Of a DNA stretch of 64,000 nt, positions 42,616-42,800 are shown one piece after another; positions within the stretch are counted from its first letter, which is position 1; the number at the start of each line of letters is the position of its first letter. Both the position numbers and the translations under genes were made by a program. Origin of the DNA: Clostridia bacterium (GTDB lineage: Bacteria; Bacillota; Clostridia; Christensenellales; UMGS416); the NCBI GenBank assembly GCA_030637745.1, contig DAOWFX010000123.1, forward strand, positions 1,147 through 65,146, written 5' to 3'. The notes beneath the pieces are model-generated. The model had not been told where the DNA came from. It made no database searches and worked only from the letters and a program-made list of their open reading frames with translations.

Positions 42616-42800
42616 GCTCATGCTAGGTGGCACAGGCTTACGGAATCATATGGGAGAGGCTCGTAGTCAAGGGTTCAAATTGCGAAGCAATCCCTTGACA
42701 ATGAGAGGGACACATATGATAGGCTTTGGGGCTAAAAGCCACTAAGAGAGCGAACATAGACCGACCCCTAATAATATAAGGTCCTATAACACCAGTTAGA
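42616..42800 (+). other. GC-rich structured non-coding segment upstream of rep (candidate cis-RNA or RCR origin)
   Basis: About 47% G+C by my count over 42621-42780, against about 22% in a 60-nt sample of the adjacent rep gene. Hairpins lie at 42666-42699 (8 bp + bulge + 4-5 bp) and 42722-42740 (6 bp). Confidence 0.5.

Follow-up and report, generated by a model that had tools for sequence, protein, structure and literature searches.

What is the function of the G+C-rich, non-coding DNA that lies directly ahead of the initiator gene in a small integrative element of a Clostridia bacterium? The element was found within a 64-kb stretch of contig DAOWFX010000123.1 (the window, whose positions serve as coordinates throughout), and the segment in question occupies about 42616–42800, between a 58-residue open reading frame (ORF) and rep (42822–43949, plus strand), which encodes a predicted rolling-circle initiator. 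The segment is probably the replication-origin region of the element, in which a promoter-mimicking single-strand origin (sso) hairpin is followed by a double-strand origin (dso).

The base composition and lack of coding capacity given in the initial annotation largely hold. The G+C content of 42621–42780, put at about 47%, is 46.9%, and that of 42616–42800 is 46.5%. The segment is indeed richer in G+C than rep, but the 22% reported for that gene came from a small sample and was too low; the actual value is 26.8%, compared to 28.4% for the island and 36% for the whole window. A G+C-rich bump 50–250 nucleotides (nt) before rep is present in most loci encoding a Rep homolog. Two ORFs overlap the segment, at 42608–42745 on the plus strand and 42638–42919 on the minus strand, and both were rejected as coding candidates as neither has a match in Pfam, PHROG or NCBIfam. 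The conservation of the segment follows base pairing, not codons.

A long imperfect hairpin on the plus strand (42626–42746) is the proposed sso or single-stranded DNA (ssDNA) promoter, identified by a covariance model, pair counts and DNA folding. Its outer stem, P1, pairs 42647–42652 with 42713–42718, while the inner stem, P2, pairs 42660–42673 with 42692–42705 and carries an unpaired GAGG (42656–42659) directly on its 5′ side. The tip reads GCGAAGC (42682–42688). Lower stems at 42626–42631/42738–42743 and 42636–42640/42720–42724 are tentative in the window copy. Folded with DNA parameters, the plus strand of 42622–42750 reaches −22.8 kcal/mol (z = −4.91), a stability matched by none of 200 shuffled sequences, and an RNA fold of a longer plus-strand stretch gives z = −2.88.

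Parts of this structure had been described before. The 8-bp stem GTCAAGGG/CCCTTGAC (42666–42673/42692–42699) is real and forms the inner part of the 14-bp conserved helix of P2, and the ATTGC/GCAAT stem capped by GAA is equally genuine, ending in the GCGAAGC tip. A 6-bp GGCTTT/AAAGCC stem is present in the sequence but is not a conserved structure, because in relatives this stretch (TAGGCT...) pairs with the 5′ arm, so that the local hairpin competes with the conserved pairing. Comparative support is absent for a suggested closing helix GAGC/GCTC. The supposed G-rich direct repeats are the two sides of an internal loop, one of which includes the invariant GAGG, and not functional repeats. Both the outer stem CATATG/CATATG, which corresponds to P1, and a further hairpin at 42759–42784 had been overlooked.

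Scanning metagenome and viral contigs with the core pattern GAGGCTYRTWGTCA N26–56 CAATGAG matched 77 and 2 contigs, respectively, and the full hairpin is found in about 38 pattern matches when the window and the loci of the Rep family are counted. A covariance model built from 31 copies returned 35 full-length matches of 64–110 bits, all on one strand, with the reverse strand scoring 22–41 bits. The window holds a single match (42615–42753, 84 bits, E = 1e-22). In the model-based alignment of the 35 copies, 92.5% of the cells pair, versus 30–47% when the partners are slid by 1–3 columns. Although an alignment fitted to a covariance model leans towards the model structure, the slid-partner control and the raw sequences show the same complementarity. 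None of 500 shuffles reached the observed covariation score. P1 displays double changes at all eight of its pairs across the 35 sequences, while P2, with the sequence CTC(G/A)TTGTCAAG / CTTGACAATGAG, and the unpaired GAGG are invariant.

The motif alignment contains 39 G.T pairs and 8 A.C pairs, an excess which indicates that the plus strand is the strand that folds. C-GNA-G triloops, which are unusually stable in DNA, close 11 of the 32 distinct tips, compared to 2.0 ± 1.3 in shuffled sequences, and the GCGAAGC of the window is among them. This enrichment is soft evidence that leans towards DNA; GNRA tetraloops also occur in the tips.

Neither in Rfam nor in the full-text literature searched was the hairpin family found, nor, at the sensitivity of BLASTN, in curated collections of plasmids and phages. 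An Rfam scan of 40500–48000 at E ≤ 1 returned no family at the segment, only a transfer-messenger RNA (tmRNA) gene and chance matches, and eight other motif-bearing loci gave no Rfam match at the motif (E ≤ 0.1). Iterated nhmmer searches from three sequences found nothing past the closest relatives. Sensitive BLASTN searches of PLSDB plasmids or INPHARED phages, using the window segment and the copies of loci L091, L137 and L089, yielded one meaningful match, of 45 nt, on the Ligilactobacillus plasmid pLa3_4. Full-text searches with the core sequence strings returned unrelated papers only.

The 3′ arm of the hairpin spells out promoter-like letters. A −35-like hexamer, TTGACA (42695–42700), is fully paired within the stem and is followed after 19 nt by a −10-like hexamer, TAGGCT (42720–42725). 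TTGACA is exact in 30 of the 35 copies, and the spacer of 16–19 nt is the 3′ strand of P1. In the second hexamer, TAG(G/C)CT, the T and the A are each kept in 32/35 copies and the last T in all 35. When each copy is folded with DNA parameters, the −35 hexamer has a pairing probability of 0.86–0.98 while the −10 hexamer is partly paired, its least paired positions being the last T (0.53) and the A (0.48), the pair of bases that sigma flips out of a −10 element. The elements persist, as TAAGCT and TACAAT, even in actinobacterial copies of 66–68% G+C. By its letters and spacing, TTGACA–spacer–TAG(G/C)CT has the geometry of a sigma-70/sigma-A-type promoter. Such a promoter would account for the fixed P2 and the freely covarying P1, because polymerase reads letters while the spacer only needs to be a duplex. 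The non-template letters lie on the 3′ arm, so that transcription would copy the 5′ arm and run leftwards, the direction required for priming the complementary strand. A promoter read leftwards from double-stranded DNA, with its letters on the strand complementary to the 5′ arm, was also considered and was rejected, as copies outside the L089 group lack its −10-like element.

The genes beside the motif share rolling-circle replication, not one initiator. The motif adjoins at least five kinds of initiator: Rep_trans (L089, E = 1.5e-17), Rep_1 (L092, 1.4e-53), G2P/CRI (Phage_CRI/G2P in L076, 8.6e-14), ORF2-G2P (REP_ORF2-G2P in L145, 2.2e-10), and the Rep of the island. L092 is a contig of only 2.5 kb and is circular, as the model match wraps around its ends. 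Another copy lies on L135, an inovirus-like contig with a Zot gene (1.2e-10). Recognisable nick sites always fall on the strand of the motif, as seen in the window group, the inovirus-like group and the Rep_1 plasmids. The window, L006, L017, L072 and L104 carry a nick hairpin on the motif strand, and L137, L135 and L081 carry ACCGGC-ATAATCTAACAA-GCCGGT about 170 nt downstream of the motif on the same strand. The Rep_1 plasmids have a nick-like TTCTTATCTTGATAATA on the motif strand, which resembles the nick sequence of the pC194 family, TCTTCTTgTCTTG/ATAcTA (bioRxiv 2020.09.30.320143). In the window, 13 nt separate the end of the motif from the nick hairpin downstream. A motif in that position would be displaced or transferred last.

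Among loci of the same Rep family the hairpin module comes and goes. It is found in only 4 of 74 (the window, L006, L017 and L072), with L104 added by the pattern scan. L073 and L074, two of the six closest Rep relatives found, encode Reps 44% and 40% identical to that of the window and keep the nick hairpin, but lack the module. Its presence beside unrelated initiators and its absence from these two loci indicate that the module is not the recognition or nick site of Rep. Other modules can occupy the slot. In L001, L007 and L032 (positions 3625, 3697 and 3661, about 300–380 nt upstream of rep) it holds an ssoA-like RSB, ATGCCGCGAAA, inside a different hairpin, for which pT181 ssoA has ATGCCGAGAAA. 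In L009, L014 and L018 (about 100–260 nt upstream of rep) a third conserved G+C-rich module, GCCCAGACAGACCC...GGGGGTACGA..CGAGCATTAC...GGGGGTGCAAA.CCCCC, precedes a variant of the nick hairpin with the loop ACTATTAG. The slot of L074 is empty. Taken by its distribution, the module behaves like an exchangeable single-strand origin.

Two further points concern the contigs that carry the motif. A 2.5-kb Rep_1 plasmid has been enlarged in L142 to at least 3.75 kb by an additional ORF at about 1985–3295 (+845 to +2155 from the motif), which looks like a group II intron reverse transcriptase; its N-terminus was judged by eye. An integron attC site was considered for the motif, given a terminal GTTAGGC in some copies and the integrase gene downstream of it in L144. 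The idea was rejected because the copies do not all keep the GTT, the centre does not vary, and the integrases are of the ordinary phage type, encoded in rep–xis–int order.

The second component of the origin region is a short hairpin, GACC-GACCCCTAATAATATAAG-GGTC (42759–42784, plus strand), whose bases align one to one with those of GACCGCCCCTTACTAATAGGAGGTCC in L073/L074 and of the corresponding hairpins in L006, L017, L072 and L104. Its stem covaries among the regions upstream of Rep homologs, from GACC/GGTC in the window to CCTGC/GCAGG in L006 and L104, CCCCAC/GTGGGG in L017 and CCCCCC/GGGGGG in many others, around a loop reading ...TTACTAA(T/C)AG.... Rep_trans and MOB_T proteins nick at CT′AA within the loop of a hairpin rich in G+C (PMC9371924). 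The 42759–42784 hairpin is the predicted nick site of this type, and would serve as a dso, or as an origin of transfer (oriT) if the element is mobilised; the two are not separable from sequence because both use one kind of nick site. Such a G+C-rich hairpin, with the loop ...TACT(C)T′AATAG..., forms the dso of the pT181 family and the oriT of ICEBs1, ICESt3 and Tn916, and the hairpin of the island lies directly upstream of the gene for a protein with a modelled Rep_trans fold. The pT181 dso reads AAAACCGGCTACTCT/AATAGCCGGTT, where relatives of the island read CCTTACTAATAGG. However, the pT181 origin is inside repC, whereas that of the island is in the leader. Directly 3′ of the hairpin is a conserved TATAACACCAG (42785–42795, plus strand), possibly a binding site for Rep, and the same place is taken by TCACAACACCA or CAATAACACCAG in L006, L017, L072, L073, L074, L005, L009, L014 and L018.

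Rep is a 375-residue protein (P0001) with no Pfam or NCBIfam match and only 34 relatives in a large protein database (P0001–P0034), none of which has a Pfam domain. The listed ORF starts at 42807, but the ATG at 42822 is the likely true start. The family shares the motifs R-x-D-L-C-C-H-T-D, C-R-I-Y-N-K and W-N-I-E-F-E. An AlphaFold model made from the family alignment has a predicted local distance difference test (pLDDT) score of 92, and its top Foldseek matches are the Rep_trans initiators 4CIJ and 4CWE (E about 1e-10, probability 1.0). On the strength of this model, Rep is a predicted rolling-circle initiator with a Rep_trans fold. A search of PDB sequences with the Rep profile found no match, and hhalign against a Pfam-positive Rep_trans protein gave a weak alignment covering only the FGSR..RVYNK motif. 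The description of the neighbouring gene as Rep_trans in the initial annotation is right at the level of the modelled fold, but Pfam Rep_trans itself is not matched. The family is a candidate new Pfam family within the Rep_trans clan.

A comparable arrangement was seen in three Zot-encoding, inovirus-like contigs from gut or digester. L137 (1697–1720), L135 (2686–2711) and L081 (2272–2294, oriented coordinates) carry a pT181-like nick hairpin before the gene for a 274-residue protein with no Pfam match. This protein shares the motifs SVDIAVD and RVKIYNK, and is probably another unrecognised relative of Rep_trans.

The suggestion of an origin at this site was sound, although its parts need to be reassigned: the hairpins first described belong to a Rep-independent module and the nick site lies elsewhere. 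The series of events that we infer, from nicking to polymerase recognition and priming, would run as follows. After excision, Rep would nick the plus strand in the loop of the 42759–42784 hairpin, and leading-strand synthesis would peel this strand off. The stretch 42626–42746, the last to become single-stranded, would then fold into the long hairpin, in which pairing of the two arms recreates a duplex sigma-70/sigma-A promoter from the letters of the 3′ arm: a −35 TTGACA in a perfect stem, a spacer duplex of any sequence, and a partly unpaired −10 TAG(G/C)CT. Host RNA polymerase would begin a short RNA there, with the 5′ arm and the upstream plus strand as its template, moving leftward. DNA polymerase would extend this primer into the second strand.

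Five sequence classes of sso are recognised, all from a few Gram-positive plasmids (PMC5703833, PMC8860593). Those dependent on RNA polymerase are folded single strands that are recognised as promoters (PMC4595007, PMC5703833, PMC8860593), and the usual place of a plasmid sso is just upstream of the dso (PMC4595007). The known origins of this type work only on the displaced strand, near and usually upstream of the dso, and are exchangeable among Rep types. The motif shares with sso its pairing within one strand, its placement on the nicked strand and its presence across Rep families, and with the polymerase-dependent type its −35 and −10 elements, properly spaced in the folded form. Like ssoA (pT181/pLS1), ssoU (pUB110), ssoT (pBAA1/pTA1060) and sso1 of ICEBs1, it consists of about 120–200 nt of pairing within one strand. 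Its cassette behaviour, independence of Rep type and position upstream of the dso match the properties described for plasmid sso.

The motif nonetheless differs in sequence and structure from the individual classes. Unlike ssoA, the segment 42616–42800 contains neither RSB (GAGAAAA within TTTATGCCGAGAAAA) nor CS-6 (TAGCGT), and unlike ssoT the motif forms one long hairpin and not three stem-loops. The invariant core CTC(G/A)TTGTCAAG / CTTGACAATGAG with its unpaired GAGG is peculiar to the motif. Hairpin I of pTA1060 ssoT (GAGTCAAC...GTTGACTC) resembles P2, though this is a local likeness only, and in pLa3_4 an ssoT-like region has a hairpin I that matches the tip of the L091 copy at 89% identity.

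In filamentous phages the counterpart of an sso is called the minus-strand origin. In that of Ff phages, as in the Frpo/ssi promoters of F and ColIb-P9, an ssDNA hairpin imitates a −35/−10 promoter, at which host RNA polymerase makes a primer RNA. In the inovirus-like contigs the motif lies in an intergenic region ahead of a nick hairpin and rep. It has no sequence relationship to the Ff minus-strand origin or to Frpo/ssi of F and ColIb-P9, and its hosts, unlike those of the Ff, F and ColIb-P9 systems, are mostly Clostridia and other Bacillota. Frpo, going by the title of a 1997 paper by Masai and Arai (cited in PMC6294495), reportedly serves both transcription and priming. The island also invites comparison with RS1/CTXphi, in which the rstR repressor gene is divergent from that of the initiator rstA and the origin region is intergenic. 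Both are integrating elements with a divergent repressor and initiator and an intergenic origin, and morphogenesis genes are, or may be, missing from them. However, the island has its own tyrosine integrase, excisionase and S24-type repressor, and a helper phage is not known.

Several observations weigh against an origin built in this way. The covariance model found no full-length match on pTA1060 (ssoT), pUB110 (ssoU) or pT181 (ssoA). The sso of pTA1060 (6349–6549) was not matched, with that plasmid's only matches located elsewhere at E 5–10, and pUB110 gave no match with filters off. Together with the absence of the ssoA markers, this means that the motif is not a member of those classes. 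Seven motif contigs of high G+C content (66–68%; L099, L103, L110, L075, L123, L130 and L151) have no rolling-circle gene in view, and in L099, L103 and L110 the motif is flanked by the 3′ end of polA on one side and by an AraC-type gene on the other. The invariance of the whole 13-bp P2 and GAGG exceeds what a −35 hexamer needs, so that the hairpin may in fact be read by a different factor or by a primase.

The window copy itself is not the best representative of the motif. It scores below most others at 84 bits, its lower stem is ambiguous, its 19-nt spacer is at the edge of the range, and a simple promoter scan makes no call there. Its nick loop has an A where relatives have the C of CT′AA: unlike pT181-type sites, it reads AATAATAT at the aligned position, replacing the conserved C. 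The window therefore has AT′AA at the aligned nick position, with a CT′AA three bases upstream and a stem of only 4 bp, and its hairpin differs from the L073/L074 version at five positions. The existence of the loop variant ACTATTAG in other Rep relatives indicates that some variation at the nick site is tolerated.

Two last points of this kind are that the covariation fits RNA and ssDNA alike, and that the segment is probably also transcribed. A promoter-like site, TTGACA-17-TACTAT (42392–42420, plus strand, 10/12 matches in a consensus scan), lies upstream of the small ORF, the segment and rep, and would transcribe all three, making a role as RNA conceivable. The hairpin might then be a leader element of the rep operon, or a small RNA, controlling translation, stability or copy number. 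It lies on the coding strand between this site and rep, its plus-strand RNA fold is more stable than shuffled sequences, G.U pairs suit RNA as well as DNA, and eight tips are C-GNRA-G tetraloops. Such a role is nevertheless unlikely. The downstream gene varies (Rep, a ribbon-helix-helix protein or a 78-residue ORF), no Rfam family matches the hairpin in the window or the eight other loci, and an RNA has no need of TTGACA, a 16–19 nt spacer and TAnnnT. What the loci have in common is replication through ssDNA and not any one gene. The pT181-type leader or antisense control proposed in the initial annotation fares no better, as the segment contains no terminator- or attenuator-like site and the motif accompanies more than one Rep family; no separate assessment was made of a counter-transcript promoter.

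The same structural evidence that suggests an sso would suit an ssDNA promoter used mainly for early expression, similar to Frpo, with a leftward transcript, made on the incoming or displaced plus strand, entering a repressor gene on the opposite strand. The window and L089 groups have a minus-strand repressor gene immediately to the left, for which RNA begun at the hairpin would be sense, and Frpo reportedly combines transcription with priming. This arrangement is not general, as the Rep_1 plasmids, the inovirus-like contigs and the L131/L144 group have upstream genes on the motif strand. Frpo-type promoters are also found in the leading region, where they drive early genes, while the motif occupies the opposite, trailing end beside the nick site, the part that would be transferred last. 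Early expression as the main function is hence somewhat less likely still than a role as RNA.

It is improbable that the hairpin acts as a double-stranded inverted repeat bound by Rep, a relaxase or an accessory protein as part of the dso or oriT. It does adjoin the nick site, and inverted repeats situated tens of bp away from the nick may be bound by MOB_T relaxases (PMC9371924). However, the same invariant core lies beside unrelated Rep_1, G2P and ORF2-G2P initiators and is missing from close Rep relatives that retain the nick hairpin. A conserved G.T pair and the overall preference for G.T over A.C point to folding of one strand, and the free covariation of P1 is unexpected for a duplex read by a protein. 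Finally, the motif lies in intergenic regions before the nick hairpin and rep of Zot-encoding, inovirus-like contigs, and filamentous-phage packaging signals are long, orientation-specific hairpins, but a signal for packaging of the island's single strand by a helper filamentous phage is very improbable, given that 2.5-kb Rep_1 plasmids without phage genes also carry the motif and that its promoter-like letters have no role in packaging.

The segment belongs to a small integrative element. The tmRNA gene, ssrA (46413–46776, minus strand), was identified by Rfam (157 bits) and ARAGORN, and its 3′ end forms the right attachment repeat. An exact 28-bp copy of this end (41286–41313 for 46413–46440) is the left repeat, and 41286–41380 matches only the 3′ end of the tmRNA model (a local cmscan match which skips the middle of the model). 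As the two exact copies bound about 5.1 kb, the stretch between them is an inserted element, and its sequence identifies the 3′ end of ssrA as the predicted integration target. Between the tmRNA gene and smpB, at 46783–47193, a 129-bp unit is repeated 3.2 times (85% matches), producing three look-alike spurious ORFs and a weak chance match to GIR1.

The island opens with the gene for a CI/LexA-like repressor (41622–42317, minus strand), which has a helix-turn-helix (HTH) domain and an S24 peptidase domain (Pfam Peptidase_S24, 1.3e-11; HTH_3, 2e-4) and is divergent from the rep operon. In the gap between the repressor gene and the small ORF (42335–42420), a minus-strand TTGCTA-16-TATAAT with a TG extension stands back to back with the plus-strand TTGACA-17-TACTAT; this promoter-like pair is likely the switch region of the element. 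The 58-residue ORF (42439–42615, plus strand) ends just 5′ of the hairpin module and matches no family in Pfam, PHROG or NCBIfam. Its only homolog is in L072 (54% identity over 41 residues, E = 6e-11). Downstream of rep on the plus strand are an excisionase-type HTH_17 protein (43946–44137; Pfam HTH_17, 8.5e-12; TIGR01764, 2e-7) and a tyrosine integrase (44140–45288; Pfam Phage_integrase, 5e-24; phrog_1, 6e-72), followed by two ORFs of no assigned family in the cargo position (45266–45601, plus; 45677–46261, minus). The order repressor, small ORF, rep, HTH_17 protein, integrase recurs around rep homologs and was seen in L072, L073 and L074. Related islands carry defence-type cargo, with MrcB_N/NOV_C (McrB-like) proteins, a ToxN toxin and an ADP-ribosylglycohydrolase encoded in L073 (576–1775) and L074 (735–1784 and 3157–3726). 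This suggests that rep–xis–int islands may be small defence carriers.

The content of the origin region is much as expected, and the surprise it offers is moderate. A bolder proposal, which is no better than a long shot, is that the hairpin represents a distinct and widespread class of ssDNA promoter in which P2 and GAGG are read by something beyond the −35 contact of sigma, and whose leftward RNA both primes second-strand synthesis and serves, on the incoming or displaced single strand, as the first repressor messenger. If true, this double duty would tie the establishment of immunity to DNA conversion in integrative elements, with the corollary that 5-kb islands would travel as ssDNA, mobilised or packaged by a helper filamentous phage with the same motif. 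As a natural case of a promoter rebuilt by DNA folding, the motif would be unusually clean, with sequence fixed where sigma would read it and covarying where only a duplex is needed, and it may be of use in metagenomes as a marker for replicons with a single-stranded phase. Where a rolling-circle plasmid, an integrative element or a filamentous phage can establish itself is decided by its single-strand origin. The motif is a compact and easily searchable candidate for a sixth class, spanning Rep_trans, Rep_1 and G2P replicons and ranging from inovirus-like contigs of uncultured Bacillota to tmRNA-targeting islands, some relatives of which carry ToxN and McrB-like cargo.

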